A stretch of DNA of 63,690 nt, the filler included. It is 6 parts of 6 records of this genome, joined end to end, with 100 filler letters (N's around TTAATTAATTAA, not from the genome) between each part and the next. Parts side by side here need not be neighbours in the genome. Positions count along the whole stretch, not along the records: positions 43,549 to 50,193 come from SRR31156797_6189; 5 more parts are not named here. One strand, 5' to 3'. Both the position numbers and the translations under genes were made by a program. The notes under the pieces are model-generated. The model ran no database searches. It had not been told where the DNA came from and saw only the letters and a list, made by a program, of their open reading frames with translations. Below are positions 43,549 through 63,660 of the stretch, one piece after another (positions within the stretch are counted from its first letter, which is position 1; each line of letters starts with the position of its first letter).

Positions 43549-44139
43549 TACTTCACGGACATGTCCGAGCATTGCTGAACAACCAATACGTCAACGTTAG
43601 CGTATCCATAGGCTGCTGCGATTCATGGTACATTTGATCATGAATCGAGGGTTATATGAGGAACATTACTCCTGTCAGGAGGTAAGTAAAGTTATTACAG
43701 ATTATTAGACTGTACTGTTGGTAGGTTGATATGATTCTTTTGGAGTGTTTATAGATTCCTACCAGGGGGGGTAGATACTTGATGTGTGATCCAGAAAAAG
43801 GGGCTCACAGGAGTAGCACCACACAAGGCGCATCAGGTGTTTAGTGAATATTCTTATGATTTTCTATCATTTATGAATGTTTACTGATCTCTCTTTGGTT
43901 GTTGGCTAGATTATAATGTTTATCTCCTGCTTGATTTTTTGACCTAGAGAGAGAAAGTCTAATGTATTGGGTAGTGAGTAGACAGTTTATTAATATTTTT
44001 ATGGGGGGGGGGAGAAATAGCGATATTGACTTCGTTGGTGCAGGATGGAAATACTACTAATAGTATTTAAAAAACCGGAGAATAACTTGTCATAATCTCA
44101 CAGCAATAAAGCTTTGGAAATCCCAAAAAGGAGGTAGTA

Positions 44140-44691
44140 ATGAAAATTAAGGCCCCAACAGATTTTGGTGTTTTTGAATGGCAGGTAGACGAAACTAAAG
44201 ATGCTCCCGTTGATGTTGTGGGCGGTGCTGCTGCAGATGTTGAGGTTACTTTAATCGAGAGATCCTCTTCGGATAGAGGGTTTCAAATTGAATTCATTAA
44301 TCATAGTAGTAGTTGGATAAAAATTAGATATCGAACTGCCCAAGTACTTTGCTCGGGTTGGTTCTCCAGAAACTTAAGACCAAACAGAACTAAAACTATT
44401 GAAATTCCTGCTCACCAAATTGGCGTTTGTGAGCCTTTTGAGGCTGAATACCTCAAGAAAGAATCCATATCTGAAGAGTGGACCCAGACGGACCTGAAAG
44501 GAATATTTTACAGATGGGGAGGGCAATTCTCTAATCTTTTGTATATTAAAAACGAGAATGATGAATGGGCTCGTATCGAATATAATGACGGCTCGAGATG
44601 GCGTTCAAGCTTAGTTCCACCAAACTCTGATCATACATGTGAAACTTTAGCAGACAATTCCGGTACATTACTATTTAGGTGGAGAAATTAA
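44140..44691 (+). CDS. hypothetical protein with an internal duplication
   Basis: AGGAGGT RBS; two similar segments N...W.(K/R)I.Y...W.S....PN...T.E. Confidence 0.65.
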   Translation: MKIKAPTDFGVFEWQVDETKDAPVDVVGGAAADVEVTLIERSSSDRGFQIEFINHSSSWIKIRYRTAQVLCSGWFSRNLRPNRTKTIEIPAHQIGVCEPFEAEYLKKESISEEWTQTDLKGIFYRWGGQFSNLLYIKNENDEWARIEYNDGSRWRSSLVPPNSDHTCETLADNSGTLLFRWRN

Positions 44692-44855
44692 ATCCACTTA
44701 TAAAATGTTTGAGAGCACTTAATAAAAATAGTTTTTTACTAAGTGCTCTTTCGTTATTTTGGACCTGCCGGTCAACTCTCCGACCCTTTATCGCGTTCCC
44801 ATCTCACGGGATGCTTTTGCGAACTGGTGGGGCTATTCCTTTTGATGGAGGCGTG

Positions 44856-44996
44856 ATGTCTACAAAACTATACTTTCCCACCGGCCTTTCTGTTGAGCGT
44901 GCTAAAAAGGATGCAAAGAAATATGCAAAGGAGCACGGTAGCAGGCTCTCTTCTGCACTGGATTATATAGCGATGGCCAACTTCATGTTGCCTTAA
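44856..44996 (+). pseudogene. short, probably truncated ORF with a helical N-terminal domain of mobile-element type
   Basis: GGAGG RBS; VERAKKDAKK.AK..G..LSSALD.IA..N; ends after 46 aa. Confidence 0.35.
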
Positions 44997-45414
44997 GAAG
45001 CATATAGCGATTGAAGGTAGTTTTAGGAGTATAGTCATACCCAAATAGCAAAGGAATACTCCCAGGCTTCGATCGAAACTCGGGGATATTTGAGTTTTGA
45101 AAAGATGATCCCATACTGAGATAAAAAGCCATAATTGCTCCAAACTAAAAAACCAAAAAGAATAGGCTGATGCCTAGATTTCTCCTTGGTTTACCTAGCT
45201 TTTTATGGCGGTGGGGTGAGGTCGCCAGCTTTTACGTATAATATTAATACTACGATGAGTGGCTGAAATCAAGAGTGTGCAGCTGCAACTATCTGGTTTT
45301 GTTGCAATTGTGCGTGTTCGACGTATGGATTAAACATGTTCATATATTTCAATGTGCTCAACAGTTCTGAGCATGTAACAATAATATTGAAATAGGAGTA
45401 GCCAAAGCAAGAGT

Positions 45415-45615
45415 TCAGCAGCTTTTTATCCAGGTGATATAACCGGACTCATCATCATTGATGAACACCGAGGCTGTGATGTGCATGGCGTTGACCAGAC
45501 ACAGCCCTTCTCGAATATTGGATTCTCGCAGGCACTCTTCCACATCTTCCGTGATGTTGATGAACGCCCGCCGGGTCGGGATTTCGAAGAACAGTTCTTT
45601 GCGGTATGATTTCAT
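45415..45615 (-). pseudogene. yjbQ: 3'-truncated YjbQ (UPF0047) gene
   Basis: [27 protein letters not shown] then unrelated sequence; about half the normal length. Confidence 0.8.
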
Positions 45616-45617
45616 TG

Positions 45618-46055
45618 TTATTCCTTGATTATTTTTTCCCACTCCCGAACATCCCCATCCACCAGATGAAATAGCGGATGAGCATCAGGTCTTTCGGTTG
45701 CTTGAGATTCTTTGAACCGTTCAGGATCTCGTTTTTTCAGTTTTTTCAACAAATGATGCCATTCGTAGTCGAGTTGGCCCGATGTCTCTTCAATGGAAGG
45801 GGCAGTGGCTGTCTCATCAATCTTGTTCGCGTTGAAATTGTAGTTGCGTTCGCGTGATTCTGTCAGCACAGCGGAAAGGTATGCATCAATGGCGATTAAC
45901 GGATTGGGATGTTCGCGGAAACGGTTGAGTTGCGGGTGGTTTTTATACCCTTTGGTTTGACCATGAAGTACTGCGCGCGCAAGCAGACCTTCACGCCAGA
46001 GCGCGACCAAACCTTTGGCATCAAGGTGTTTGGGATGCACGGTCCAGAGCCGCAC
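45618..46055 (-). CDS. pyrimidine dimer DNA glycosylase/endonuclease V family protein
   Basis: [34 protein letters not shown]. Confidence 0.85.
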
Positions 46056-46060
46056 AGGCG

Positions 46061-46609
46061 TTACCTCGTTTCGGCCAGATAGCCCAGCTCACGCGAAAAG
46101 TCGTCGGTATCAACAGGCTTGTCATGGAGCAGGTGGCCCAGCCGCATCATAGGGCCGGTAGGAAAATCCTTGGTCCAACGGTCATAGTAACCGGTGAAAC
46201 CATACATCCAGAGCATTTCCGAGGCCTGTGTAAAGACCTGATCTGCAAAGGAACGCCATGTAGTGGTGGTTTTTATTTCCCAGACGGGGAATTCTTCGCC
46301 GTCCACTTCACGCTTGCCCTTGAAGTCCACGGTAATGTCGAGCTTCCCGTTGGGTCTTGGGATGACTGACCAGTAATAGAGCCAGCCTTCACCGCCCCAT
46401 TCGAATTCCGTGTGGCGATAATCTTTTTCCATGTTGGTAGGCGCGTTCAGGTTGTGGACATCACATAAACATCTGAACAGGTCCTTGAGTGGTTCAGAGA
46501 ACGTGGATTGAACGCTCAGATCGTAGTGGGAGTCACTGGCAATCAAGCGACATTCCAACCGACCGGAGCTGATTTCCGGGAAAAAAATCTGAAAACGTTC
46601 GCCAGACAT
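46061..46609 (-). CDS. hypothetical protein
   Basis: GGAGG RBS before MSGERF; first gene of a three-gene operon. Confidence 0.7.
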   Translation of the reverse strand: MSGERFQIFFPEISSGRLECRLIASDSHYDLSVQSTFSEPLKDLFRCLCDVHNLNAPTNMEKDYRHTEFEWGGEGWLYYWSVIPRPNGKLDITVDFKGKREVDGEEFPVWEIKTTTTWRSFADQVFTQASEMLWMYGFTGYYDRWTKDFPTGPMMRLGHLLHDKPVDTDDFSRELGYLAETR

Positions 46610-46822
46610 CCGTACCTCCAAGGAAAATACAATTTCTCAAATCCTACACAACTCCTTTTAGATTAGCAAAAGGAATGGCGTTGAAAGCGACTCTCATTGG
46701 TTTAATGAAAAGGGTGAATTTTAAACCCTGTCAAGATGATTCTTTATACCAATCAAATGATTTTACTCTACATTCAGTCACATTCAGGCGGTTTTCGAAA
46801 AACCCGTGCTAGTTTTTTTCAC

Positions 46823-46924
46823 CCGGCCCGGAGGTCTCGGCAAACGGCCCTTGCGATCATGGCGAAATGGTTTCGCTGACGGTTGCGTGGACACCCGTTA
46901 ACAGGACGCAGCTCGGATACCCGG
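46823..46924 (+). ncRNA. structured 5' leader of the capsid operon
   Basis: About 100-nt nested hairpin with two copies of a GG-C-CC / GG-AYAC-CC internal loop. Confidence 0.6.
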
Positions 46925-46960
46925 ACTCGTTGAGAATTTGTAACGGACAAGGAGAAAACG

Positions 46961-47791
46961 ATGTCCACGACTGTCAGTAATGGTTTTGTAACCCAATATG
47001 TTGAAATGGTGCATCAGGCCTATCAGGCTCAGGGCTCCAAAATGCGTCAGACCGTCCGCCTTCAGAGTGAGGTCGAAGGTTCCAAGTGCGTGTTTCAGAA
47101 AGTCGGTAAGGGTGCGGCTGGCAAGAAAACCCGTCATGGCAACGTGCCGCTCATGAACCTCAATCATTCCAATGTGTCCTGCACGCTGTCCGACTGGTAC
47201 GCTGCCGAGTACATCGACAAACTCGATGAACTCAAGGACAAGGGCGACGAAAAGCAGGTGGCAGCCAATGCCGGTGCCTGGGCTTTGGGGCGCAAGATTG
47301 ATGAGTTGATTATTACCAAGCTCGGCGGTGCTGCCAACGTGGTCGCTGAGAATACGTCCGGCCTGACCAAGGACAAGATTCTTCAGGCCTTTGGCACGCT
47401 GAATGCCAATGATGTGCCGGACGATGGCCACCGTTTTGCCGTGGTCGGGCCGCATCAGTGGAACGAATTGCTGAATATTCAGGAGTTCAAATCCAGTGAT
47501 TACGCTGGTGAACAGTATCCTTGGCTCAAGGGAACTGAATCCCGCACATGGCTCGGTATCACCTGGATGTTTCACACCGGCCTGCCGCTGGATAACGGTA
47601 TGCGTAAGTGCTTTGTCTACCATCGCAACGCTGCTGGTCTGGCCGAGGGCCAGAAGGTCAAGGCATTCGTGGACTGGGTGCCGGAAAAGGCCGCCCATCT
47701 GGTGGACCATATGCTCAGTGCCGGTGCCTGTCTTATCGACCCGGACGGCGTGATTGAAATCCAGTGCGACGACGACGCAGTGATTCTCTAA
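46961..47791 (+). CDS. phage major capsid protein, podovirus-like HK97-fold type
   Basis: FVTQY..VHQAYQ.QGSK.R.TVR, DWYAAEYIDKLDELK, ALGRKIDELII, L.ANDVP, EFKSSDY, W.G..W pattern; AAGGAG RBS. Confidence 0.82.
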   Translation: MSTTVSNGFVTQYVEMVHQAYQAQGSKMRQTVRLQSEVEGSKCVFQKVGKGAAGKKTRHGNVPLMNLNHSNVSCTLSDWYAAEYIDKLDELKDKGDEKQVAANAGAWALGRKIDELIITKLGGAANVVAENTSGLTKDKILQAFGTLNANDVPDDGHRFAVVGPHQWNELLNIQEFKSSDYAGEQYPWLKGTESRTWLGITWMFHTGLPLDNGMRKCFVYHRNAAGLAEGQKVKAFVDWVPEKAAHLVDHMLSAGACLIDPDGVIEIQCDDDAVIL

Positions 47792-47810
47792 GCTCATTTA
47801 AAACTACAAC

Positions 47811-47830
47811 CGGAGGGGGCGACCCCTCCG
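47811..47830 (+). other. intercistronic GNRA-capped hairpin without a U tract
   Basis: CGGAGGGG-GCGA-CCCCTCCG. Confidence 0.65.
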
Positions 47831-47853
47831 CCATATATATGGAGAATTGAACA

Positions 47854-48102
47854 ATGGCATACGTAAGTGAAGACATGCGGCTCATGGGTGGTGTCCCGGG
47901 TCAGCAGTTGTTTCTGTATCGTTCTGAAGACGCTGTAGCATCCGTGACTGGCTCCGGTTATTTTGATGAAGCAGCTATCGATTACACCCTCGGGACTGGC
48001 GACATCATCATCGCCTGCACCGGCGCTGATCAGGCCGAGGCCGTGGATATGTTGGTCGCCACCAACACGGATGGTGTGGTCACGGTAGTCAGCGGCACTT
48101 AA
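47854..48102 (+). CDS. small capsid-associated (decoration/cement-like) protein
   Basis: GG...[17 protein letters not shown]....L..GD.I pattern typical of the gene following this capsid type; GGAG RBS. Confidence 0.6.
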
Positions 48103-48153
48103 TCTGTTCGGCTTATAAAGAGTCGACCTGGAAAAGCGTTTCATACTCCTCCA

Positions 48154-48188
48154 GAGGACCTTCTTTCGGGAGGGTCCTCGCTTTTTTT
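48154..48188 (+). terminator. intrinsic terminator closing the capsid operon
   Basis: GAGGACCTTCT-TTCG-GGAGGGTCCTC followed by GC and T7. Confidence 0.85.
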
Positions 48189-48480
48189 GAAAAAGGCTGT
48201 AAATAAAAGACAAATAAAAAAGGCCAATATGGATAAAGGGGATCCTGAGTATACTCGTTGGCTTTTGGAGATAAAGAAAAATCCGCCGTGGAAGAGCAAA
48301 GAAAAGACGCCAACGGAAAAGGTGCAAAGTGTGACGCATCCGTTGGGAGAAGAGGTAGGGATGACGATGTTAGAACAACTGGTGAAGGACAGGCCTTTCT
48401 TATGGAAAAGTGTTGGGTAAAGGACTGAGTCGGCTTGGTGTGCTTACAGATATTCTTGGCAACTCAGATGAGGCTTGGTA

Positions 48481-48699
48481 ATGAAAAGATTGACCAAAGA
48501 ACTCTATGTTGAGTTTTTGATTGGGGTTGTGAGCGGTATTGTTTTCGGAGGAGCAACATATTGGTATAGTCAATCATGGGAGCTTGCTACCGTGGTTGGT
48601 ATTGTCCTTTTTGCCGGAGCTTTGCGGAGTATGAATTCAACGTACAGTGCTTTTCGTCGCAAACCGGAATATCAGAAAGATACCAAGGATAATTCATGA
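48481..48699 (+). CDS. small two-TM hypothetical protein
   Basis: GAGG RBS, two hydrophobic stretches; ACGGGGATG/CATCCCCGT hairpin follows. Confidence 0.55.
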   Translation: MKRLTKELYVEFLIGVVSGIVFGGATYWYSQSWELATVVGIVLFAGALRSMNSTYSAFRRKPEYQKDTKDNS

Positions 48700-48752
48700 A
48701 CAACGGGGATGCCCATTCGGACATCCCCGTCTATTTTGAATGATCGTAAGCT

Positions 48753-49589
48753 TTAGAATTTTAGCGTCAGCCCGGACCCGACTTCCTTGAGCGGACATTT
48801 TTTTGCCATGACGATTTTGGCGGCGAGGTCGGTACAATGGCAGGCGTATAGGTTTTCCAGACTCAATGCGGCCAGATAGTCCGTGGTCGGATCAAGTCGT
48901 TCCGGTTTGGCCTGTTGCAAGTGGAAGCCGCCGAGGACCGTGCGGACTTTGTCCACACCTGTGAGGCGCTTCGCCTGTTCGACGGTATTACAAATACCGG
49001 CGTGAGCGCAGCCGGAGATAACCACCAGTCCAGAATCCGAGACATAGGCCAGAGCGGTGTCGTCTGGCATGTCGTCAGGTACTGGCCCATTTTCTTCAAT
49101 GCGTTCACCCAGTGGAGCGGGCGGTTCGAAGTCCATGACGCGTTCAATTTCTCCGAGCGTGACCAATGTGTCCGTGAGCCAAACCGGCTTGTCGGTCAGG
49201 TTCAATTCAAACTGGCGTGATAATTTTTCTTCTGCCAGCAACATACCGAGTTCCGGCACTGCACTTTTTCGTTTGGACGTGAAGGCCTGCGGATGGGCTA
49301 CAATCCGAGGGCGTGCGTGCGGCTGTTTATGAATAGCCGCCTCAAAATGATGGCGAATCAGATAATCCAACCCCCATGTGTGATCAAAGTGACCGTGAGA
49401 CAGGGCAATCCAATCTAGATTGAGCAGGTCGATCCCCTTGCGCTGTGCGTTGATCAAAAAGGCGTCGGAATATCCGGCGTCGAAAAGTATGTTTTTGCCG
49501 TCATCCTGAATAAACATGGACAGTGCGGGTTCAGCCAGAAATTGGGTGCCGATGAGTGAATTGTTATCGACGAGAAAGGTCAGTTCCAT
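48753..49589 (-). CDS. MBL-fold metallo-hydrolase
   Basis: LFDAG, SHGHFDH, ISGCAHAG, GGFHL, CHCT. Confidence 0.9.
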   Translation of the reverse strand: MELTFLVDNNSLIGTQFLAEPALSMFIQDDGKNILFDAGYSDAFLINAQRKGIDLLNLDWIALSHGHFDHTWGLDYLIRHHFEAAIHKQPHARPRIVAHPQAFTSKRKSAVPELGMLLAEEKLSRQFELNLTDKPVWLTDTLVTLGEIERVMDFEPPAPLGERIEENGPVPDDMPDDTALAYVSDSGLVVISGCAHAGICNTVEQAKRLTGVDKVRTVLGGFHLQQAKPERLDPTTDYLAALSLENLYACHCTDLAAKIVMAKKCPLKEVGSGLTLKF

Positions 49590-49648
49590 GGGAGGGCTCC
49601 GGGTTATTGTCACTGGAATCAATTGCGGAAACAGTCTATGCTCTTCCC

Positions 49649-50140
49649 ATGAATTCTCGCAACCTCGTTTTATCACTTTTCCTGTTGTCTCTGTTGACTT
49701 TTTTTCCGGGTCACGCTTCGGCCCTTGATGTCCAATTCCTTCATATAATAGATGGGGACTCTTTGGTGGTCGTGTCTGGTGGCGATTCCGTCGAGGTCCG
49801 GCTTATCGGTGTGGATGCCCCGGAATATCGACAGGAATACAGTAACAAGGCCAAAGTCTTTTCCCTGAAATTCTGCCATGGCAAACGTCTGAAATTGGTC
49901 TTTGATCGAGAGAAAAAGGACCGTTACGGCAGAACGCTCGCCTATGTCTATGCCGACGGCGAAATGCTCAATAAAGCCATCATCCAAGCTGGATTGGCCC
50001 TTGCCTTTAAGGTTAAGCCCAACACCAGATATTCCTCTCTTTTCAAGGCTGTTGAGAAAGAAGCCAAGAAAGCGAAGCGAGGCTTTTGGCGATTCGGTGG
50101 TTTGAAACAAACTCCTGCTCAATGGCGTAGGGCTCATTAG
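49649..50140 (+). CDS. thermonuclease (SNase) family protein
   Basis: Signal peptide, IDGDS, VRLIGVDAPE, DRYGRTLAYV. Confidence 0.9.
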   Translation: MNSRNLVLSLFLLSLLTFFPGHASALDVQFLHIIDGDSLVVVSGGDSVEVRLIGVDAPEYRQEYSNKAKVFSLKFCHGKRLKLVFDREKKDRYGRTLAYVYADGEMLNKAIIQAGLALAFKVKPNTRYSSLFKAVEKEAKKAKRGFWRFGGLKQTPAQWRRAH

Positions 50141-50193
50141 TCGGCTTGCGATAGCGGCACATCTGCACATTTTTCGGCCTTGCCGAGTCCTCA

Positions 50194-50293: not shown

Positions 50294-52235
50294 CTGGTAT
50301 CTCAACAAATACAAAATCAAAATCTTCAAAATTCACATGTTCAAGTTCCGGATCCAACTCCTTTATTTTTGCAACCTTATGAAAAGAATTATCGATTTTG
50401 TAATTATACATATCTACTCCTGCAATTGGCTCAACTGTTTCGTTTGTTACAAATAAAGTTTTATAACCAATTGATGCCAGTTTTTGCAGCAAAAGAACCA
50501 GTAATAACGATTTTCCTTCTTTACCAGTGGTACTAAACACCAGGTTCGAATCGGCAATATGTGAAGGATTACCACTTTGTTCTTTATTAAAAATCAGCCT
50601 GCGGGCAATGGCTTCAAGTGCGCCGCTTTTGACCATCTCAAGGTCAATCCTTTTTGAAACCTTGGTTATACGCGGAAAAACTGATGCAACTTTAAGACCG
50701 GTAAGTTTTTCTGCTCGTTGTGCAGTTTTTATATTCTGATCCAGAAAATCCAGAATGATTATTAATGAGGCAGGAATAATAAATCCAATCATTAGTCCAA
50801 TCAGCAATAACATTTTTCGCTTACTTGGCTCCGATTTTAGCGGGAATAATGGTGGTTCTAATACCCTTAAGTTCGAATTTAGCTCAACATTTTGTTGTTT
50901 TAATTTCGCTACATTCAAACTATGAAGTATTGAAAGGTATTCTCGTTCAGCAATGTCAATCTTACGTTCAAGACGCTTCATGGTAGCTCCCTTTGGAGCA
51001 TAGTCGCTAATAACTCTTCTAAACTCTTCCTTTTTTTGTGTACCCACAAAAAGTTTTGCCTTCGCGGCTTCGTAATTTACTACTTCTTCCAACCACTCTG
51101 TTAATACCGAGTTAGAGGTTATTCCGTCAATGCTGTTATCAATAAAATAAGAACGTTCAACCGAGTTTCTTAATTCATCCTGGAGTTTATACGATTCTAT
51201 TTGTAACTGAGCAATCTCATCATCATATTGTTGTGTGTTAAGCGAATCAAATCTAAGCTGGTATTCTTTCGTAGCTATTTGCATGTTAATATTTGCCAGC
51301 TTATTTCTTAATTCAACAATATTAGAATTATTTAATTGCTTTTTTTGCTGAGCAGTTAGTTTATTCTCCAGAACCTTTAATACTGATTCAGAAGCTGCCA
51401 GATCCATTTTTATTTCGTTGTATTTTGCCGAAAACAATTCTTTTTGAGCAACGATGTGTTCGGTTTGTTCATAGTAGTTAATAATGTTATTCTTCTTGTT
51501 AAACTGTAGCAGCTCATCTTCTGCCATATCCAGTTTGCCTTTAGCATCGTCCAACTGTGCCTGAAAGTACTTTAATATCGCATCTGACTGATTGATTTTT
51601 ACCGATGAATAACTGTTAATAAAAACTTCGGTTAATATCTCGAGTGTTTTTTGACAAATTCCAGGATCTGTTGATCGATACTTAACCTCTATCATATCGC
51701 TCGAGCTTATTCGCCTTGCCTTTAGTTTTCCGGCAATTTTCCCATAACTATAATCGGGATGGTTTAATACTGCGAGCTTATAAATAAAGTTTGAAAAGTT
51801 TTGCTCTTTAAAAGCTAAAAAGGCCTGGTAAGTTCTATCAAAATCGCCTTTAACAACCAGGTCTTTTACTTCCTGTGGAACAATTCGCATTAATTTACGA
51901 TAAGACTCACTACTGATTATCTCTGAGCTTGGCCCCTCTTGTATCATGTGCAAGGTAAACAACTTTAAACCAACCTCTTCGAGTGTTTCCCGCGACTTTA
52001 CAATATTAATCAGGTTGTCGAAAGCGATCATTGTACTTAAACGGTCGACCTTACTATTTTCAAGCGATGTTAAACTTGAACCAGAAGCTATTCCGGTATA
52101 AATATTTGTAAAAGAAGTATACGACTTAGGCTCTCCTTTAGTGGAATAAAAAATTACTGCAAACAGAACAATTGGTCCTAAAATGAGGATATAAATATGC
52201 CTTAACAGTAACCTTATGAAGTATAGTATATTCAA
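50294..52235 (-). CDS. GumC/Wzc-like polysaccharide co-polymerase (3' end cut)
   Basis: N-terminal TM, long coiled coil, P..P..SKR plus TM, degenerate Walker A STTGKEGKS. Confidence 0.8.
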
Positions 52236-53005
52236 TTCGCCTGGTTTAAATTAATTTTTATCCCTACTGTTTCCTGTAATAGATGCAATGCCGTTGAAAA
52301 TTCAATCTTAGCTTCTTCAAGCCCTAGCTTTGCATTAAAATACCTGCTTTGTTGATTGGAATAACTCGACAAACTTATTTGTCCTTTTTTATAGTTTACT
52401 TCCGAATTCATCGTCTGCAACTTAGCTGTCTCGTATTCAGCGATTGACAACGATAATTTAGCATAAGACTTTAGCACATTACCATACTGTACAATAACAA
52501 GTTTTCTTAATTCCTGTATTGTTCGTTCTCGCTGATATCCAAGTCGTACGGCCTCGTTTTCCGCCATTTCTTTTTCTGAATTATCAAAAAACCTGGAGAT
52601 TGGCACTTTTAGCATTACACCAATGCTATAGCGTGCCTGTTTGGTACTATGAGTTGTTACATCATCAATTCCCAGGTCTTCTGTAAGAATAAGGTTATCA
52701 AATACCCCATATTTGGCCGAGCCGTCAATACTAAAATAGGTCAGCCAATCCTTCTTTTCTGAAGTTACTTTTAATTCCTGGATAATAATGTCTGCATCAA
52801 TCATTTTTAGCAAAGGAGAATGTATTTCAGCAGCATCGAGCAAGCTTTGAAGAGAAGGAAGTCGCTTTGAAATATCATTCTGCTCCAAATTACTTTCCAA
52901 TTTAACCTGTGCTTCCTGCGCAATCAGTTCCATACCAACTACCACAAACACAAGAATCAATATTATTTTACACACTCGAATATTCATTTCAATATGGCTA
53001 AACAT
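52232..53005 (-). CDS. short TolC-family outer-membrane protein
   Basis: Signal peptide, A..HSPLLK, VPIS, single OEP repeat. Confidence 0.7.
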   Translation of the reverse strand: MFSHIEMNIRVCKIILILVFVVVGMELIAQEAQVKLESNLEQNDISKRLPSLQSLLDAAEIHSPLLKMIDADIIIQELKVTSEKKDWLTYFSIDGSAKYGVFDNLILTEDLGIDDVTTHSTKQARYSIGVMLKVPISRFFDNSEKEMAENEAVRLGYQRERTIQELRKLVIVQYGNVLKSYAKLSLSIAEYETAKLQTMNSEVNYKKGQISLSSYSNQQSRYFNAKLGLEEAKIEFSTALHLLQETVGIKINLNQAN

Positions 53006-54203
53006 TTTCCTTTTGAAATACTGCCTTAAAAGTTCTGATTATAATCCATATATCCTTCCAAAAAGAGAATCTACTGTTGGCTATTTCCGAATAGGTATTA
53101 TCCAGTTGTTTACGCTCTTCCGGAGACATTTTAGAGGTTTTTCCTCTTGCTTCAACCTGCCACAAACCAGTAATGCCAGCAGGACCATTAAACCTGTCTG
53201 TCCAGTTATCGGTAGTCAGTAATTCTGCTTCGTAAAGAGGTAAAGGTCTGTTTCCAACAATCGACATATCTCCTTTTAAAACATTTATTAGCTGTGGTAA
53301 CTCATCAATACTAAGTTTGCGAATAATATGACCAACCTTTGTAATCCTTGGATCATTCTCAAATTTTACAAAAGCACTTTCCTGGTCCTCCTTCTTATGT
53401 TGAATATGCGAAGCCTCATCCACCTCTAAATCATCACCAAATAAAATTGTTCCATCTATGTTGTTCTCATTCGTACTGTTTTGTACCTCTTCAACGATAA
53501 TTTCTTGTCCGGTCTCCTCATTTTTATATTGGTTCAGGTGTTGAAACTCTTTTAACCTCCTGTCAGCATCAGGATACATCGATCTTAATTTCAGAAAGTT
53601 AAAAATACGATATCCTGTTCCCACCCTTTTCGAGATATAATATACCTTACCTTTGGACTCAAGGCGTATGGCAATTATAAAAACGATTAATATAGGCGAT
53701 AGCATCAAAAGAGCCAGACCCGAGAATGTGATATCGAAAGAGCGTTTAAAAAACGGAGTTTTATAAATTTCAGTTTCAGGTTCATTCTTTTCTTTATGAA
53801 CCAAGGTAATACGGGGTTTTAATACAGTAAGAGTTTTAATACGGTTGTATACCATAGCGGAATCAACGGGCTTTTGGAACAAATCATCAACCTTTTGAAT
53901 AAAAGCATGCTTTATATCTTCATCTGTTTTTTCCGCTGTTAATACAATAAATGGTATCTGGTTTTCTTTATCAACTTCTTTTATAAACGATTCATGAAAA
54001 TCTATTCCGTTGATACCCGGCAGCTCTTTTTCACAAACAACACCATCAACCCTGTTGCCTTTTTTTAACCAATTTGTAGCACTTAAGGCATTTGGAAACT
54101 GAGTTAAATTTGTTAAACCGGCTTGTTCGTTGAAACAGCTGCTTATCGTTTCGTCCGATCCGATATAAAGAATCGACAATTTCCGTGTTGGTATACCTGC
54201 CAT
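52998..54203 (-). CDS. receiver-domain-fused priming sugar transferase
   Basis: N-terminal REC-like domain; KRSFD, KLRSM, DPRITKVG, SIDELPQL, VGNRP, GITGLWQV. Confidence 0.9.
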   Translation of the reverse strand: MAGIPTRKLSILYIGSDETISSCFNEQAGLTNLTQFPNALSATNWLKKGNRVDGVVCEKELPGINGIDFHESFIKEVDKENQIPFIVLTAEKTDEDIKHAFIQKVDDLFQKPVDSAMVYNRIKTLTVLKPRITLVHKEKNEPETEIYKTPFFKRSFDITFSGLALLMLSPILIVFIIAIRLESKGKVYYISKRVGTGYRIFNFLKLRSMYPDADRRLKEFQHLNQYKNEETGQEIIVEEVQNSTNENNIDGTILFGDDLEVDEASHIQHKKEDQESAFVKFENDPRITKVGHIIRKLSIDELPQLINVLKGDMSIVGNRPLPLYEAELLTTDNWTDRFNGPAGITGLWQVEARGKTSKMSPEERKQLDNTYSEIANSRFSFWKDIWIIIRTFKAVFQKENV

Positions 54204-54213
54204 AACATACGTT

Positions 54214-54579
54214 TTAACGGTTCAACACTCGCTCAATTCTTATCAATAGTTCTTCCGGATTAAACGGTTTTACTAAGTAATCTTCAGCTCCCATTTTTAA
54301 GCACTTAATCCTATCATTACTGCTATCGAGACTACTAAGAACAATTATTGGTACATCTTTAAAATATCCACTCGCTTTAACATGCTCAATCAATTCAAAA
54401 CCATCAAGATTGGGCATTTGCAAATCAGTTAAAATTAAATCGGGAATGTTTCCTTCTTGTAACCAGGTTAAAGCTTGTAATCCATCTTCTTTGGTTTCCA
54501 CCTCAAAATCTTTACTAAGAAACTGTACGATTAGCTTGCTAATTGACGATTTATCGTCAACAACTAAGATTTTTTTCAT
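54214..54579 (-). CDS. single-domain response regulator
   Basis: LVVDD, DLQMP, KPF. Confidence 0.92.
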   Translation of the reverse strand: MKKILVVDDKSSISKLIVQFLSKDFEVETKEDGLQALTWLQEGNIPDLILTDLQMPNLDGFELIEHVKASGYFKDVPIIVLSSLDSSNDRIKCLKMGAEDYLVKPFNPEELLIRIERVLNR

Positions 54580-54706
54580 TGCTTTTAATTAATGGTTTGT
54601 AATTTGTCCTCATAACAAATATATGATACTGATAAAAAAAACTGTCACAAACATGGCCAAATCAGGCTAATTTGAGCAAATACCCCAGGGACTACTTCCA
54701 AATTTC

Positions 54707-55000
54707 TTACCTGATGTTAGGCAAAAAGAAAAACCTTATGTAAAAATACCCAACCGCCTCACTCAAAACTGCCCTAACTCCCCTAATTTTTTGCCACCAT
54801 CGGTCCAAATCATAGCTAAATTCCTCCACCAAAATAACACCAACCTTTATGGTTTCCTTTAAAACCATCTGAAACAAAACTGACCTCGTGCCGCATGACA
54901 ACCAAGGATTAAAACAATAATATTATCTGCGGGATAATTTTTTTAAACAAGTGCCGGGGTGTATGCTCTGTTTCGTACAACATTGTCAGAAGGTAAAGCA
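54707..55000 (-). pseudogene. degenerate YdcF/ElyC-family gene fragment
   Basis: Pieces RNRAYTPAL*, GCHAAR and, after a frameshift, YDLDRWW..GVRAVLSE..Y.Y.RFFF.P; upstream limit approximate. Confidence 0.5.
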
Positions 55001-55301
55001 ATAATATTTACTAAATAAAAACAGGGTTTAATAAAAGTTGTATAAGATTTACCGATGGCTTCTACAATTCCAAAATCAAGCCTCATGCCGTTAAATACTA
55101 AATCTGACCATTTAGGGAATTGGAACGATTTAAATAACCAGGAAAGTAACTACCAAAAATAAAAGAAACTACAACCGTTATTGTCGACGCAAAAACACGC
55201 CCCAACCAGAGAAGGTGATAACATTGCTTCTTTTTGAAAAGCTTTGGATTTGCATTCATTATTACATGATCTTGGCTTATACCAAGTTTCGTAATATTTC
55301 A

Positions 55302-57591
55302 TCAGGAGGTAATAATTTGAAGTACCAATTCTTTTGTTAAATTACGTCCAGCAGCTTTTGCGCGAATTTCATCGAAGGTATAACGAAAATCGCAGCCCTG
55401 TTTCCAATTGCTACACCCGTAAGCGGTTTTACCTTTTACAATATTTCCGATCCCACATTTGGGACATAAAGGCATATCATTGGAAGCATCTTTCTTTTGG
55501 GATGATTTGTTCTCGAACTCTACATTAAAATCAGCGGTAAGTTTCAGCACTCCTTCCACCTTTTCTTCTCCCAGCATAAAACCTTTTAGTTTAGTGGTAG
55601 CTTTTTTTGAGATAAGCCTTTTTATCTGATTATCGCTTAACTTTTTTCCCATAAAAACAAAAGGCAACCTAAAATCGCAGCCCTCTTTCCAGCGGCTACA
55701 TCCATATGCACTCTTTCCCTTTAGAATTTCTCCTTTGGAACACTTTGGACAAACGATCAATGCATCACCAGGTTGTGCTGGTTTTGTTTTAGACTTCTTT
55801 TTCGATGCTTTTGTTTCTGCAGGTTCCGGTGCAGCCAACCTTACAGTTTTTTGTTCTTTCATTACCTCAACAACCAGGTCGTACACCATACGTTTCATAT
55901 CGAAGATAAACTTCCTGGCGTTGTAATCGCCCTGCTCAATTTCGCGCAAACGTTTTTCCCACTGGCCGGTCAATTCTGCCGATTTGAGCAGTTCATTCCG
56001 GATGGTATCAATCAACTGTATTCCCACCCGGGTAGGATGAATCTGCTTTTTCTGACGTTCAATGTATTTCCTTCTGAAAAGTGTTTCAATAATGGCTGCA
56101 CGTGTTGATGGCCTTCCTATTCCGTTGGCTTTCATCAGGTCACGTAACTCTTCATCATCCACATTCTTACCGGCTGTTTCCATTGCGCGCAATAATGAAG
56201 CTTCGGTATAATAACGCGGTGGTTTTGTTTCTTTTTCAGTAAAAGATGGTTCATGCGGGCCGTGCTCTCCTTTAACAAAAGCGGGTAGTATTTTTTCATC
56301 GTCTGCTCCTTTGTTCTCCGTCTTCTCCGACTGGAATAATACCCGCCACCCCGGATCCAGTATTTCTTTACCGGAAGCCACAAACTGAACTCCTACTACC
56401 TCGGCTTTTACCTGTGTTTTTGCAACTTTACAATCGGGATAAAAGGTTGCTATAAACCGACGAACAATGCTATCGTAAACATTTTTTTCATTTCCACCCA
56501 AAAGTTTCTCCTCACCAGTAGGAATAATCGCGTGGTGATCGGTTACCTTTTTATCGTTAAAAACTTTAGCTGATTTTCGAATTGTTTTCCCCTGCAGCGG
56601 CTGTATAAACTTTTCGTAGGCTTTTAATCCTTTTAAAATGCCAGGTACTTTAGGATACAGATCAGTTGGCAAAAAGGTAGTATCAACACGTGGATAAGTT
56701 ACTACTTTCATTTCGTAAAGTCGCTGAATGGTTTTAAGCGTTTCATCGGCAGTAAGTCCAAAGCGGTTGTTACAATGTACCTGCAAACTGGTAAGATCGA
56801 AAAGTTTAGGAGCATATTCCTTTCCATCCTTTTTTTCTACTTCAGTAATAAAAAGATCTTTACCCAAAACCTGCTTCAACAGTTTTTCCCCATCTTCCTT
56901 TTTAAAGAACTTACCTTCAGTATTGCTAAAAACCGTGTCGCGGTATAGGGTTTGTAACTCCCAGTAAGGCTGAGGTTTAAAATTTGTTATTTCGTAGTAC
57001 CGCTGTACAAGCATCGCCAGCGTTGGCGTTTGTACCCGTCCGATTGACAACACCTGTTTGTAGCCACCATATTTTAAAGTGTACAAACGTGTGGCATTCA
57101 TCCCTAATAGCCAATCACCAATAGCTCGTGAACTACCGGCGTAATATAAATTATCAAAATCAGTAGCAGGAAGTAGTTTTTGAAATCCGTTTTTTATAGC
57201 TTCTGTTGTTAATGATGAAATCCACAATCGCTGAACCTCTCCTTTGTATCCCGCCTCTTTCATCACCCAACGCTGTATTAGCTCTCCTTCCTGACCAGCA
57301 TCACCACAATTTATTACAAGATTGGTTTTTGAGAGCAGATCTTTTATGACATTAAATTGTTTGGTAACACCTCCATCGCCTGTCATAACTTTTGTCTCGA
57401 AACGTTCGGGAAGCATTGGTAAGGTAGCCATATCCCATTTTTTCCAGCTGGCATTATAATCCTCGGGAGGCCAAAGCGTACAAAAATGGCCAAAGGTCCA
57501 GGTTACCTGGTAACCATTTCCTTCGTAATAACCACCTTTACGGGTATTTGCTCCAATAACCTGGGCAATTTCTTTGGCAACACTTGGTTTC
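55302..57591 (-). CDS. topB: DNA topoisomerase III (5' end cut by contig edge)
   Basis: Frame extends to KPSVAKEIA..VTWTFGH; DAGQEGE, GRVQTPTL, TYPRVD, GRPSTRA, C-terminal zinc ribbons. Confidence 0.93.
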
Positions 57592-57691
57592 NNNNNNNNN
57601 NNNNNNNNNNNNNNNNNNNNNNNNNNNNNNNNNNNTTAATTAATTAANNNNNNNNNNNNNNNNNNNNNNNNNNNNNNNNNNNNNNNNNNNN
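57592..57691. other. artificial contig spacer
   Basis: N44-TTAATTAATTAA-N44. Confidence 0.99.
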
Positions 57692-58064
57692 GCAAATTTA
57701 AAGCAAGCTTTATTTGCACTCACTTATCGCAATAATTCAAGACTACGTCTGCTTTGCTATAAAAACTACAGCTCTTTTGTCTAAATCGCGAAAACTCCTA
57801 CTCTCCTGCGTCGAGTACTCAGACAGTTCGCAATTAATTACGACAAAACAACTTTGTTTTTATGCTCACCAGTCGAGGTCGAGGTTGAAATAAGATGGCA
57901 AAATATTATTTCAGAATTTAGAATTAAAATACACTTACAATACTAAGCGGAACTTTGGAAAGGATCAAAAAGAATCAACGAACGCTGTTTTTTTATCAAC
58001 CAATTCGATTGACGGAACTTGTTGAGTAGAATTATAAGTGTATTAACCAGCATCTAAGAAGTAC

Positions 58065-58369
58065 TTGCGCACAAATGCACAAACTAGTTTTGGCTGGATA
58101 GATGCTTGCACATGTATGCAAAGCTTATTTTTGAAAAAGGTTGGCCTTGCACGTTTGTATTTTACTCATTTTTCATTTGGGATGAGCCTTGCACAAGTGT
58201 GCAAAGCTTGGTTTTAAAAAAAGATGACCATGCACACTTGTGCAAAGCCATCATTTTTTCAAATTGCCTCTTGCACGAACGTGCAAACACCATTTGTAAT
58301 TTTTTTTGCCCTTTGCACGTTTGTGCAAGCTTCCCTTTTATAAAGTTTGGTCTTTGCACGCTTGAGCAA
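58065..58369. repeat. array of 8 palindromic TTGCAC-N4-GTGCAA units with a 41-42 bp period
   Basis: Units start at 58065, 58106, 58147, 58189, 58230, 58271, 58313, 58354; spacers differ from one another. Confidence 0.85.
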
Positions 58370-58411
58370 GGTACTATCTGGAGTTTATTGGATTATGGAA
58401 TGAGGGATTCG

Positions 58412-59047
58412 TTAGTTAATTAAAACTTTTTTAGTCAGTATTTTTTTGTTCTCTATTTCTATTTTAAGAATTACTATTCCCTTATACCGAAGATTATGAA
58501 TAGAAGTGCTTTGTGCAGGATGTGTATAGTTCAAATGGGTGATAAGTTTACCAAGGGTAGTATATATTTCAATATTATTGATGTTTGATTGTGCTGAATT
58601 TATATAAATCGATTTATCCAAATGGTTATAGTATACTTGTAGGGCATCCTCTTTTAGTTTTGAGATAGTGGTAATGATAGCGTATGTATCTAATTCAATC
58701 TCATAAAAATTCTGGTTTTGAAGATCTTTGTTCGTATTGATTACTCCGGTTATTTTTATTGAATCATTTAATTCCAGGTTTATGTTATCTATAATGAGTG
58801 GCCCGTTTACCCATTTCCATGAGTTGTTTATGGAAATAATAAAATTTGCCGTATCATTTTTTAGCGCATAAACAATCCCTGGAATACAGGGGCTATCAAG
58901 ACAAGGATTACTGATTTCTGCAATTTTACCAGTAATGCTTTCCATTTCTTCCTCATTTTGGGCATTTGAGGATAAGCTTGTAAGTGTCAAGAAAAATGTA
59001 AGTAAGAAGATTCGTAAGGTTGTTAAAGCTTGATTTTTAGTTGTCAT
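58412..59047 (-). CDS. secreted protein with a T9SS type A-like C-terminal sorting domain
   Basis: Signal peptide, NPCLDSPCIPG, IEIYTTLGK..GIVILKI..TKKVLIN. Confidence 0.7.
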   Translation of the reverse strand: MTTKNQALTTLRIFLLTFFLTLTSLSSNAQNEEEMESITGKIAEISNPCLDSPCIPGIVYALKNDTANFIISINNSWKWVNGPLIIDNINLELNDSIKITGVINTNKDLQNQNFYEIELDTYAIITTISKLKEDALQVYYNHLDKSIYINSAQSNINNIEIYTTLGKLITHLNYTHPAQSTSIHNLRYKGIVILKIEIENKKILTKKVLIN

Positions 59048-59187
59048 AATAAAAGTGGTGAATTGGTTATTTGTTATGTAAATAAACAGAGAATTGATTA
59101 AACACAATATCAATTAATCAAAAAACAATATCATGTTTTCAATGCTAGAATTCTGATTGAAACTCCAATCTACCAATTACAATGCTC

Positions 59188-60426: not shown

Positions 60427-60438
60427 TCTTATCTGCAA

Positions 60439-61125
60439 TTATGCTTTGCGTTCGTCACTAATAATTTTACCATCTTCCAGTTTAATTACTCTTCGGGCTT
60501 TATTTACCACACGCGCATCGTGGGTACTAAAAATAAAAGTGATTTTTTCTTCCCGGTTAAGCTTCTCCATAATGTCAAGAAGGGTTTCGGTGGATTTAGA
60601 ATCCAGGTTAGCCGTAGGTTCATCGGCCAGTACAAATTTAGGTTTGGATGCCAAGGCACGTGCCACAGCTACTCTTTGTTGTTGTCCTCCAGATAAGCGA
60701 GAAGGACGGCTGTTTAATCTTTCACCCAATCCCACTTCAGTTAGTAAGTCAATGGCTCTTTTTTCGCGTTCGGTTTTGTTTTTTCCCTGCAACTGCATGA
60801 TAAATTCTACATTCTCGCGTGCGGTTAAAACAGGAATCAGGTTGTAAGCCTGAAAAACAAAGCCAATATTATGCAATCGAAAATCAATAAGTTCAGATGA
60901 TTTTAGTTCGTTGACATAGGTATCACCCACTCGAACAGAACCGGATGTGGGTTGATCCAATCCACCCAGCATATTTAAAAAAGTGGTTTTTCCACAACCC
61001 GAAGGACCAACAATAGCCGTAAATTCACCTTCTTCAATTTGTAAATCGATACCCTGTACCGCAGGAACCTCCACCTCAGAATCGTGGTATATTTTAGTAA
61101 GTTGATTGATTTCTATAACGTTCAT
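60439..61125 (-). CDS. LolD/MacB-type ABC ATPase
   Basis: GPSGCGKT, LSGGQQQR, ADEPTANLD, STHD. Confidence 0.93.
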   Translation of the reverse strand: MNVIEINQLTKIYHDSEVEVPAVQGIDLQIEEGEFTAIVGPSGCGKTTFLNMLGGLDQPTSGSVRVGDTYVNELKSSELIDFRLHNIGFVFQAYNLIPVLTARENVEFIMQLQGKNKTEREKRAIDLLTEVGLGERLNSRPSRLSGGQQQRVAVARALASKPKFVLADEPTANLDSKSTETLLDIMEKLNREEKITFIFSTHDARVVNKARRVIKLEDGKIISDERKA

Positions 61126-61183
61126 TTCTTTTGGATTTAATTGGTTAATAACTGTTCTCTGTTTACTGATCACTGAAAACTGC

Positions 61184-63651: not shown

Positions 63652-63660
63652 TTTATTAGT

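Follow-up and report, generated by a model that had tools for sequence, protein, structure and literature searches.

A stand-alone capsid operon as a candidate locus of a scattered, host-kept podovirus gene set in Desulfovibrionaceae

The window analyzed here, a stretch of 63.7 kb, is made up of six contigs separated by stretches of N; one of the contigs (positions 43549–50193, 6645 bases) carries an intact two-gene capsid operon. With fair probability, this operon is one locus of a scattered podovirus gene set that has been kept by the host, i.e., part of a gene-transfer-agent-like element. The operon would make the shell of a phage-derived particle, formed by an HK97-fold capsid protein of the T7/LME-1 type and a small decoration protein, predicted to be a trimer, whose place would be at the capsomer junctions. 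The podovirus structural and packaging set would have been retained by the host lineage, with its loci lying apart among ordinary host genes, and together the scattered genes would yield a short-tailed, DNA-filled particle unable to carry its own scattered genes. A broader proposal, which we put forward with reserve, is that two Desulfovibrionaceae genera (approximately 60 species genomes) may have among their core genes a tamed T7/LME-1-like podovirus, its head, packaging, and tail genes dispersed over as much as 700 kb yet functional, which would give rise to short-tailed particles packaging and delivering host DNA, maybe of the Dd1 kind, with the capsid under the control of a structured leader RNA not described before. 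We found no printed description of the scattered gene set in the literature. The features of the operon and its flank are as follows.

46728–46734, plus strand: invariant box CTGTCAA, located approximately 230 nt ahead of the capsid start; from an alignment of 15 regions upstream of capsid genes, all 15 of which share it.
46797–46815, plus strand: conserved block AAAACC..G...TAnnnT just before the leader, possibly a promoter −10 region; from the alignment of 15 sequences.
46820–46926, plus strand: structured 5′ leader of the capsid gene; from covariation.
46949–46954, plus strand: ribosome-binding site AAGGAG of the capsid gene; read from the sequence and conserved in the capsid upstream alignment.
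46961–47791, plus strand: gene of the major capsid protein, 276 aa, HK97-type, PF19821; from Pfam, PHROGs, and the profile match to 9eg4_A.
47811–47830, plus strand: G+C-rich hairpin of 8 pairs between the capsid and companion genes; from folding.
47841–47844, plus strand: ribosome-binding site GGAG of the 82-aa gene; read from the sequence.
47854–48102, plus strand: gene of the putative head-decoration (cement) protein, 82 aa, with the capsid-binding base domain only; from the model fold, a profile match, and gene order.
48154–48189, plus strand: candidate intrinsic terminator of the operon, with an 11-pair stem (48154–48179) and a 4-nt loop, followed by the T run GCTTTTTTTG.
48753–50140, both strands: host flank outside the system, with an MBL-fold hydrolase gene (minus strand) and an SNase nuclease gene (plus strand); from Pfam PF00753 and PF00565.

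Along its full length, the 276-aa ORF matches the Pfam family PF19821 (Phage_capsid_2; E 1.3e-71 and 241.7 bits at a cut-off of 25), with capsid residues 5–270 aligned to profile positions 1–292 of 293, and it also matches the major head protein family phrog_3437 (E 5e-66). A profile of 35 sequences retrieves 9eg4_A, the solved capsid chain of Legionella phage LME-1, with an E-value of 5e-37 and query positions 1–268 on chain positions 1–284. The HMM check for an HK97-type capsid proposed in the first-pass annotation gave a positive answer, and the stand-alone, intact pair of 276-aa capsid and 82-aa companion genes that it had described is confirmed. The AlphaFold model of the capsid protein is poor (mean pLDDT 53.3, with residues 1–110 below 50), and the five Foldseek matches obtained with this poor model at E ≤ 0.001 are all phage capsid chains, the first being 9eg4_A at a TM-score of only 0.47. 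Encapsulins occur among the weaker Foldseek matches of the same poor model. The capsid gene is intact in all 53 copies examined (275–277 aa). Pairwise comparisons of the window capsid with 13 relatives gave dN/dS values between 0.04 and 0.12 at dS of 0.95–1.7, and the median for the clade is 0.165 (91 pairs).

The companion ORF matches phrog_18004 (E 6e-13), and the Pfam scan assigned no family to it. Its AlphaFold model has a pLDDT of 93.7 and resembles chain H of the LME-1 structure (9eg4_H; E 5.2e-5, probability 1.00, TM-scores 0.75/0.69, rmsd 3.1 Å, 25% identity), the next match having an E-value of 0.30. The profile match to the LME-1 decoration chain (E 0.009) covers chain residues 19–84 only, and the distal projecting domain is absent from the companion, which has 82 aa vs. 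269 aa in the LME-1 protein. The predicted homotrimer scored 0.96, against 0.20 for the best of three controls, a pass that may reflect memory since a like complex (9eg4) is solved; the runs agreed in at least 98% of contacts, with partner pLDDT of at least 94. The mark used for homotrimers was calibrated with two copies, not three; 21 of 30 proteins whose solved structure is a pair of one chain attained it, and none of 23 solved as single chains did. In all 53 loci, the gene after that of the capsid encodes a homolog of the companion. The gap between the two genes is 21–71 nt in the 49 loci where the companion was picked at its own start, a range given without L013, L016, and L052, in which the first ORF is in the wrong frame or has an upstream start; tblastn places the companion directly after the capsid gene in L013 and L016. 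In Pelagibacter phage Hodr a companion homolog likewise follows the capsid gene (hhalign probability 98.8). Judging from the modelled fold, we identify the 82-aa companion as a minimal, base-only head-decoration protein, predicted to be trimeric.

Other phage genes are absent from the surroundings of the operon, in agreement with the first-pass annotation. Portal, terminase, scaffold, tail, and integrase genes were not found among nine contig ORFs searched against Pfam and six searched against PHROGs, the contig reaching only 3.4 kb leftward and 2 kb rightward of the operon. A tblastn search of the whole window with 41 proteins (11 from the scattered set and 30 from a true prophage of a relative) gave matches only in the capsid and 82-aa genes, and found no partner gene. 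An intact prophage at the capsid locus was rejected, as contiguous portal, scaffold, terminase, and tail genes, an integrase gene, and a lysis module are missing from the contig and the window. The neighbors are those described at first pass: on the left, divergent genes for a 186-aa protein without known function and a pyrimidine-dimer glycosylase (PF03013); on the right, the MBL-fold and SNase genes. This right-hand flank marks a conserved chromosomal site of the capsid operon, with SNase located 3′ of the companion gene in 10 of 10 related clade loci with enough flanking sequence and MBL in 9 of 10. The host-like codon style noted earlier was not clearly borne out, the G+C content being 0.55 in the operon vs. 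0.47 in the contig.

The signals attributed to the operon at first pass, i.e., its own ribosome-binding sites, leader, and terminator, were recovered, and the leader is covarying. The CTGTCAA box is the same in all 15 aligned sequences despite differing upstream genes and is possibly a regulator site. A scan for the sigma-70 consensus called no promoter at the conserved block 46797–46815. The capsid leader is predicted to fold into helices nested about a hairpin whose center, AACGGTT, is conserved; of the 27 pairs predicted from 14 sequences, 13 have changed on both sides. Leader cells are paired in 91% of cases vs. 26–54% when the partners are slid, and the covariation score was reached in none of 500 shuffles. 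As a single sequence, the leader folds no better than its shuffles (z +0.84). A search of Rfam with the leader gave no matches at E ≤ 1. The covariance model of the leader (R1) has a match just upstream of the capsid gene of a true prophage (36.6 bits, E 2.5e-4), and the leader may have been inherited from the phage ancestor; it probably sets expression or mRNA stability of the capsid gene. The same model has no match at the portal, terminase, adaptor, and nozzle loci. Among upstream regions, no 8–10-mers are common to three or more locus types, and a GAYACCC-like motif shows no enrichment. A box containing GTCAA is seen upstream of both the capsid and the terminase genes, a descriptive observation given without a statistic. 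The intergenic hairpin (−20.2 kcal/mol, z −3.5) is more stable than expected, none of 200 shuffles folding as well. In the terminator scan overall, sites were no more frequent than in shuffles, so that only its position supports the terminator at 48154–48189.

Contigs of a marine-sediment metatranscriptome (X1) cover positions 46902–47110 and 47896–48138 with 93–97% identity. They were rejected as proof of transcription, since DNA is possible in such libraries and contigs give neither level nor strand. A 99%-identical strain is represented in runs X2–X4.

In the related genomes, the partner genes have been identified, and they are scattered, nearly universal, single-copy, intact, and under purifying selection. 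In all five related genomes, a T7-like portal (E approximately 1e-140 to 1e-155), a nozzle, an adaptor, and a large terminase are intact and located away from the capsid gene, the portal coming with a scaffold gene and the nozzle with fiber genes. The full scattered set in the relatives comprises the portal/Bbp19-like/scaffold locus, the large terminase, the tail adaptor, the nozzle/tail fiber/fiber chaperone locus, and a DUF5675 protein. In the complete genome G001, these loci lie at 3.899–3.906 Mb (nozzle/fiber), 3.933 Mb (adaptor), 3.958 Mb (terminase), 3.971 Mb (DUF5675), and 3.996 Mb (capsid), and the portal/Bbp19/scaffold locus is found at 0.105 Mb; host genes beside the scattered loci include a glycosyltransferase and an MBOAT gene. 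A 92-aa ORF preceding the G001 portal was rejected as a member of the set, being not conserved in G002 or G005. The search for unlinked single-copy portal, terminase, and tail genes suggested in the first-pass annotation was therefore successful in the relatives, and the organism of the window presumably possesses the partner loci found in their genomes.

The genus of the nearest relative was surveyed in 42 species genomes, of which 41 have the capsid, 41 the portal, 41 the terminase, 41 the nozzle, 42 the adaptor, and 41 the DUF5675 gene. In a second genus, the capsid is present in 20 of 22 genomes and the portal in 21 of 22, mostly unlinked. Five of the genes span between 40 and 707 kb in each of the 18 genomes with all of them on one contig, often in the same order, and the partner nearest to the capsid is at least 8.7 kb away in 14 of these 18 relatives. 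The identities to G001 co-vary among the proteins (Spearman 0.76–0.93). Gene transfer agents are expected to consist of host-kept, vertically inherited phage genes under purifying selection, and in the relatives each of six genes is kept in 41–42 of 42 species, with a conserved flank and capsid dN/dS values of 0.04–0.17; they are also expected to form a set too wide for one particle and devoid of an integration/replication module, and the span of 40–707 kb in the relatives agrees with that. The orthologs, right-hand synteny, and dN/dS sought at first pass point the same way.

The same single genome of the 42 lacks the capsid, portal, terminase, and nozzle genes, and one genome of the survey has a split capsid gene. 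The set is therefore dispensable. These losses, together with the missing small terminase and ejection proteins, could suggest functionless remnants of an old prophage that has been rearranged and has not yet decayed. We regard this as most improbable, given dS near saturation (approximately 1–1.7) combined with the low dN/dS, the intact capsid in every copy, and the retention of six genes each in 41–42 of 42 species. Quite improbable, too, is a capsid pair acting alone, either as an encapsulin-like shell or as a decoy poisoning the assembly of related phages, with its tie to the other loci being historical only. Such a role would suit an operon that stands alone with its own leader and terminator, as well as the encapsulins among the weaker structural matches; however, a cargo gene is missing, the second gene of the operon encodes a decoration protein, the scaffold gene is kept beside the portal, and the genome without the capsid has also lost the portal, terminase, and nozzle. 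The repurposed nanocompartment considered in the first-pass annotation was not supported, as packaging and tail partners are conserved along with the capsid.

Under the preferred reading, that of a scattered gene set retained as a gene-transfer-agent-like element, particles would form, package host DNA, and transfer it. As regards the multi-locus gene transfer agent suggested at first pass, the relatives' unlinked partners, capsid selection, and synteny were found; particles, transfer, and the window's own partners are what we infer from them. Several components known from the prophages were not recovered in scattered form. The prophage small terminase used as a query gave no tblastn match in the 393 kb of G001 examined, and none lies next to the scattered large terminase in this genome. 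No scattered ortholog of the two large internal proteins of the prophage (896 and 886 aa) was found in the five genomes searched, so that the DNA-ejection apparatus may be missing. The 896-aa query matched only the prophages of G001 and G005; in addition to these, the 886-aa query matched a nearly identical fragment with a broken frame in G001 and, at 1.73 Mb in G002, a copy with 54–58% identity. No lysis genes of the scattered set were identified; the vicinity of the terminase has just some small membrane proteins, including one that matches phrog_2524 (function unknown). No integrase or replication gene was found beside the scattered loci scanned.

Of the 42 genomes surveyed in the genus, 6 carry true prophages, in which the same genes lie within approximately 10 kb and are only 23–44% identical to the scattered set; in the one prophage that was annotated, that of G001, integrase, small terminase, and holin genes are present as well. 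The fiber of the scattered tail locus in G001 is exceptional in being 98.5% identical over 610 aa to the fiber of the resident prophage, and the scattered and prophage particles of this genome would therefore aim at the same receptor. PBSX-type defective phages are known to kill competitors. Unlikely, but deserving some weight, is a scenario in which particles are built and kept for another use, such as killing competitors in the PBSX manner or blunting infection by related podophages. The conservation data suit any host-level benefit, related phages and co-resident prophages exist, and both the shared fiber and the failure to find ejection proteins with the prophage queries in five genomes are compatible with it. 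On the other hand, 41 of 42 genomes have retained the large terminase and portal, an indication that the heads are filled with DNA, and no toxin or defense gene lies beside the scanned loci.

Contiguous phages with structural proteins 54–81% identical to the set also exist. The first-pass annotation had named homologs confined to complete prophages as evidence against its reading; complete phages with capsids up to 81% identical were indeed found, and the closest homologs of the window capsid (82–93% identity) are all stand-alone and intact. The AU test rejects a single clade of all stand-alone capsids (p 0.00017, for a group named after the tree was seen). Hence a single origin of all stand-alone copies was rejected, and either more than one origin or gene exchange between phages and hosts follows. 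The close phage relatives (capsid identity up to 81%), the exchange or repeated origin suggested by the AU test, and the near-identical fiber could also fit scattered genes that serve or parasitise related podophages, as spare parts or a satellite-like element that is not self-sufficient. This we consider very improbable, as a related prophage occurs in only 6 of 42 genomes vs. the set in 41 of 42, and no integrase or replication gene adjoins the scanned loci.

Of 151 Desulfovibrionaceae genomes surveyed, 101 have a T7-like portal and 91 an adaptor. An agent common to the whole family was dropped from consideration: the five clusters fetched are contiguous, have portals only 31–34% identical, and show no tblastn match to the window capsid. 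These five clusters are other podophage lineages.

Few gene transfer agents are known so far, and reviews see the main obstacle in their bioinformatic recognition (PMC6854486, PMC12946183). The signature offered here consists of podovirus core genes that are single-copy, intact, and under purifying selection, yet scattered among host genes, and a true prophage of like type, resident in the same genome, serves as an internal control. If the proposed reading is true, a gene transfer agent of sulfate reducers would for the first time have an identified, testable gene set. The set is open to knockout in cultured Pseudodesulfovibrio, making testable the decades-old question of DNA exchange by phage-like particles in sulfate reducers. 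The analysis has also yielded a minimal 82-aa decoration domain, predicted to be trimeric, and a capsid-specific leader RNA with covariation that is absent from Rfam.

Among known systems, the agent of Rhodobacter capsulatus (RcGTA) is similar in its host-kept phage structural genes, vertical inheritance, and additional chromosomal loci. RcGTA is siphovirus-like, and its head-tail core forms one cluster of approximately 15 kb. Its ectopic loci, as listed in a review, encode fiber, head-spike, and maturation proteins (PMC6854486). In contrast to RcGTA, the ancestor here would be a T7/LME-1-like podovirus, the core genes themselves are scattered over 40–707 kb, and the system is known from its genes alone. 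Dd1 of Desulfovibrio desulfuricans, from the same bacterial family, is a small short-tailed particle carrying approximately 13.6 kb. Reviews list Dd1 among the agents discovered by experiment and call its characterization cursory (PMC11841831, PMC11409702). The candidate cluster printed for D. desulfuricans is described as contiguous, with the small terminase Ddes_0720 directly upstream of the large terminase (PMC6854486), unlike the scattered set of G001, where the large terminase has no such neighbor. The Faecalibacterium prausnitzii agent (FpGTA) is described as GTA-like, most likely podovirus-like, and encoded by two separate operons (PMC12946183); it belongs to another phylum, has two loci vs. 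six or more, and differs in that its particles with packaged DNA have been demonstrated.

The closest solved structure is that of LME-1 (PDB 9eg4), both for the full-length capsid (E 5e-37) and for the decoration base (TM-score 0.75). Its reported gene order is capsid, decoration protein, adaptor, and nozzle, and its T=7 head measures approximately 60 nm (PMC12407071). However, the phage LME-1 is infectious, its genome is contiguous, and its 269-aa decoration protein has a projecting distal part. The uncultured podophage L129 (IMGVR_UViG_3300009379_000034) is close to the G001 set in its terminase (69%), portal (67%), Bbp19-like protein (63%), adaptor (78%), and nozzle (54%), and to the window in its capsid (81%) and companion (65%). 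It differs in having all genes contiguous and in canonical order on a 37.5-kb contig, with homologs of the internal proteins present, and its capsid falls outside the stand-alone clade (SH-aLRT 97 for the clade). Encapsulins, finally, are similar as HK97-fold shell proteins encoded in cellular chromosomes without a surrounding prophage, but they come with cargo genes and lack partners of the portal, terminase, or tail kind, whereas the shell protein described here is accompanied by a putative decoration partner and by conserved packaging and tail genes.

The window consists of six contigs joined by N runs, and the capsid operon lies on the contig at 43549-50193, where the following elements were found.

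46961-47791, plus strand: major capsid gene, 276 aa; Pfam PF19821 (Phage_capsid_2) end to end (E 1.3e-71) and phrog_3437 (major head protein)
47854-48102, plus strand: companion gene, 82 aa; phrog_18004 (a phrog of unknown function), no Pfam family
48154-48189: terminator with an 11-pair stem and a T run, downstream of both genes

Both genes are preceded by ribosome-binding sites. The other scanned ORFs of the contig comprise a divergent 186-aa gene without an assigned family, a pyrimidine-dimer glycosylase, a truncated UPF0047 gene, an MBL-fold hydrolase, an SNase nuclease, and two unknowns. Forty-one structural-set and prophage proteins from a relative, used as tblastn queries against the whole window, matched the two operon genes and revealed no further structural or prophage gene. 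Together with the Pfam and PHROG scans of the contig ORFs, this search confirms the stand-alone capsid and companion operon without a prophage described in the first-pass annotation.

G+C content is low (0.35-0.41) in the left 1.9 kb of the contig (43549-45442). A 99%-identical strain from sequencing runs X2-X4 has contigs that cover 45443-50193 and then run into other sequence; at this point of divergence the UPF0047 gene (45415-45642, minus strand) is truncated. The left stretch represents a strain-specific insertion or else a chimeric join in the assembly. In the same strain, 291 different letters stand in place of the segment 48385-48705, which contains a 74-aa membrane ORF (48475-48699), and variable inserts between the companion and MBL genes were observed in relatives too. 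The other five contigs (1-43448 and 50294-63690) have a G+C content of 0.37-0.42, their ORFs are only 22-39% identical to the compared stretches of G001, the complete genome of the nearest relative (titled Desulfovibrio caledoniensis lm2024), and they may belong to another organism than the capsid contig does.

A profile built from 35 homologues of the capsid protein aligns over residues 1-268 with the capsid protein of Legionella phage LME-1, whose structure is solved (9eg4_A; E 5e-37). The fold is assigned by sequence homology, since AlphaFold modelled the capsid protein poorly (pLDDT 53); the Foldseek matches of this low-confidence model were all phage capsids, with encapsulins further down. 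The comparison of the window capsid gene with 13 relatives, as proposed in the first-pass annotation, revealed a purifying pattern (dN/dS 0.04-0.12 at dS 0.95-1.7), which excludes neutral decay; the clade median is 0.165 (91 capsid gene pairs).

The 82-aa companion folds with high confidence (AlphaFold pLDDT 93.7). Its model resembles the base of the LME-1 decoration protein in fold (9eg4_H, TM 0.75), and a weak profile match to that protein agrees (E 0.009, chain residues 19-84). According to the LME-1 study, the trimeric base of the decoration protein ties two hexons to a penton in a T=7 head of ~60 nm, and the gene order is capsid, decoration protein, adaptor, nozzle (PMC12407071). The homotrimer predicted for the companion scored 0.96 (best of three controls, 0.20), against a mark that was calibrated with two copies rather than three and was reached by 21/30 proteins solved as one-chain pairs and 0/23 single-chain proteins. 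At least 98% of contacts agree between the trimer runs, with pLDDT of at least 94, although the predictor may be reproducing a similar complex that has been solved. A companion homologue follows the capsid gene in 53/53 loci (L013 and L016 placed by tblastn) and also in Pelagibacter phage Hodr (hhalign probability 98.8). The protein matches of both genes make the operon one of a shell protein and a predicted base-only decoration, or cement, protein, the companion.

The 260 nt upstream of the capsid start are conserved across 15 relatives despite differing upstream genes. Within them, the consensus fold of the leader at 46820-46926 comprises 27 pairs, and in 13 of these both sides have changed; the paired share of cells is 91%, versus 26-54% with slid partners, and the covariation score was reached by 0/500 shuffles. 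An Rfam search returned no match. The covariance model, whose E-values are rough, matches just 5' of a true prophage's capsid gene (E 2.5e-4) and has weak matches at the same capsid-upstream place in three more distant loci, with no matches at other structural loci. We read it as a leader of the capsid gene that probably descends from the phage ancestor.

Scanning a single genome for each species identified 52 capsid loci, in which all examined capsid genes are intact (275-277 aa) and three kinds of context occur. The first stand-alone clade (14 copies including the window, support 100/100; records mostly titled Pseudodesulfovibrio) has the SNase gene downstream in 10/10 copies with enough flank and the MBL gene in 9. 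Sixteen of the 19 copies in the second stand-alone clade are located directly before a UDP-glucose pyrophosphorylase gene. The canonical podovirus module (T7-like portal PF12236, scaffold PF05396, capsid, companion, adaptor phrog_394, nozzle phrog_376, and large terminase) is the setting of every Rhodospirillales copy and of six copies of Desulfovibrionaceae type; in G+C-rich loci the genes were called heuristically. Some basal members (L013:7346-14231 and genomes G162, G168, and G181) have the order terminase, capsid, companion, portal, scaffold. This placement of the capsid pair before the portal, not after the scaffold, suggests an early rearrangement preceding wider scattering. One Rhodospirillaceae chromosome (OY764545.1) carries two contiguous podophage modules of the same type (L038 and L039), about 228 kb apart.

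Family searches revealed a strong T7-like portal, as well as nozzle, adaptor, and large terminase genes, away from the capsid in 5/5 related genomes; the first-pass annotation had proposed looking for such unlinked portal, terminase, and tail genes. The G001 capsid is 93% identical to that of the window, and the set is arranged in G001 as follows.

0.105 Mb: portal, Bbp19-like protein, scaffold-like protein, flanked by glycosyltransferase and MBOAT genes
3.899-3.906 Mb: tail locus with nozzle, 200-aa unknown, fibre N-terminal protein, 759-aa fibre or virion protein, and fibre chaperone (PF16778)
3.933 Mb: adaptor
3.958 Mb: large terminase
3.971 Mb: DUF5675 protein
3.996 Mb: capsid and companion

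A true prophage of G001 (near 2.12-2.145 Mb) is an internal control for the look of a mobile copy: the equivalent genes are contiguous, integrase, small terminase, and holin genes accompany them, and their identity to the scattered set is just 23-44%.

Among 42 species genomes of the G001 genus, the family search found the capsid in 41/42. The portal (41/42; 66-100% identity to G001), terminase (41/42; 68-100%), nozzle (41/42; 55-100%), adaptor (42/42; 65-100%), and DUF5675 protein (41/42; about 50-100%) are similarly widespread, and capsid, portal, terminase, and nozzle are absent together from one genome. Eighteen genomes carry all five main genes on one contig; there the set extends over 40-707 kb, frequently in the order nozzle, adaptor, terminase, capsid, portal, and in 14/18 the distance from the capsid to the closest partner is 8.7 kb or more. 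Identities to G001 co-vary among the proteins (Spearman 0.76-0.93). Six of the 42 genomes additionally have a true prophage related to the set, in which all five genes fit into about 10 kb. A second genus (22 genomes) has the capsid in 20 and the portal in 21, mostly on separate contigs or far apart.

In a family sample of 151 genomes, the counts were 25 for PF19821 capsids, 101 for T7-like portals, and 91 for adaptors. For one phage type, these portal and adaptor counts amount to a very high prevalence; the two genes are mostly present in one copy each, usually 3.5-5 kb apart. The five other family clusters that were fetched are other podophage lineages, contiguous and with portals only 31-34% identical. 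Genome G187 has its capsid gene in two pieces, residues 1-228 and residues 231-292, separated by 42 kb (C1:2473501-2474121 and 2431321-2431503), while portal, terminase, nozzle, and adaptor remain. Near the scattered G001 terminase (L096:3427-3956, about 3.9601-3.9606 Mb, minus strand) are two small membrane proteins of 70 aa and 106-177 aa, the longer matching phrog_2524, in a stretch that G005 and G002 also conserve; both may be lysis proteins.

The isolate-phage collection yielded 79 matching records, all below 60% identity. IMG/VR contains 13 related contigs, the closest of which (L129, 37.5 kb) is a contiguous phage with a capsid 81% identical to that of the window and terminase, portal, adaptor, and nozzle 69, 67, 78, and 54% identical to the scattered set. 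Both stand-alone clades hold together in the capsid tree (SH-aLRT 97 and 93), and their nearest neighbours are contiguous copies on longer branches. The AU test rejects one clade of all 35 stand-alone capsids, a group named after the tree had been seen (p 0.00017), so that either the separation occurred more than once or phage and resident genes were exchanged. The fibre of the scattered G001 tail (L099:10055-12334, 3.900-3.902 Mb) is 98.5% identical over 610 aa to that of the resident prophage (L074, about 2.120-2.122 Mb), and a frame-broken fragment of the 886-aa internal protein of the prophage (89-100% identical) was observed beside the tail locus; both point to recent exchange between prophage and scattered set.

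The podovirus parts retained by the host lineage, as seen in the relatives' genomes, are terminase, portal, scaffold, capsid, decoration protein, adaptor, nozzle, fibre, and chaperone. This list of building blocks is complete, and they are host-kept, single-copy, intact, and under constraint, in an arrangement that cannot move as a unit. In the most likely reading, their assembly would give short-tailed, DNA-filled particles carrying host DNA, and the set would then be a gene-transfer-agent-like element, with the operon of the window as its shell locus and the partners known from relatives. A killing or anti-phage role of such particles fits the same data.

A literature search, with most subscription journals outside it, returned no published description of the scattered set, nor of Pseudodesulfovibrio together with a gene transfer agent. 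Reviews and recent papers treat Dd1, the gene transfer agent of Desulfovibrio desulfuricans, as only cursorily characterised (PMC11841831, PMC11409702, PMC12946183), and the printed candidate is the predicted small terminase Ddes_0720, adjoining its large terminase (PMC6854486). Four results count against the gene-transfer-agent-like reading: no small terminase was found for the scattered set, the two large internal proteins of the prophage have no scattered orthologue in five genomes, the only candidates for lysis genes are the small membrane proteins near the terminase, and the leader model and upstream comparison gave no common regulatory signal across the structural loci. In RcGTA, the last step of DNA entry relies on competence proteins of the recipient, and a missing ejection apparatus therefore need not be fatal.
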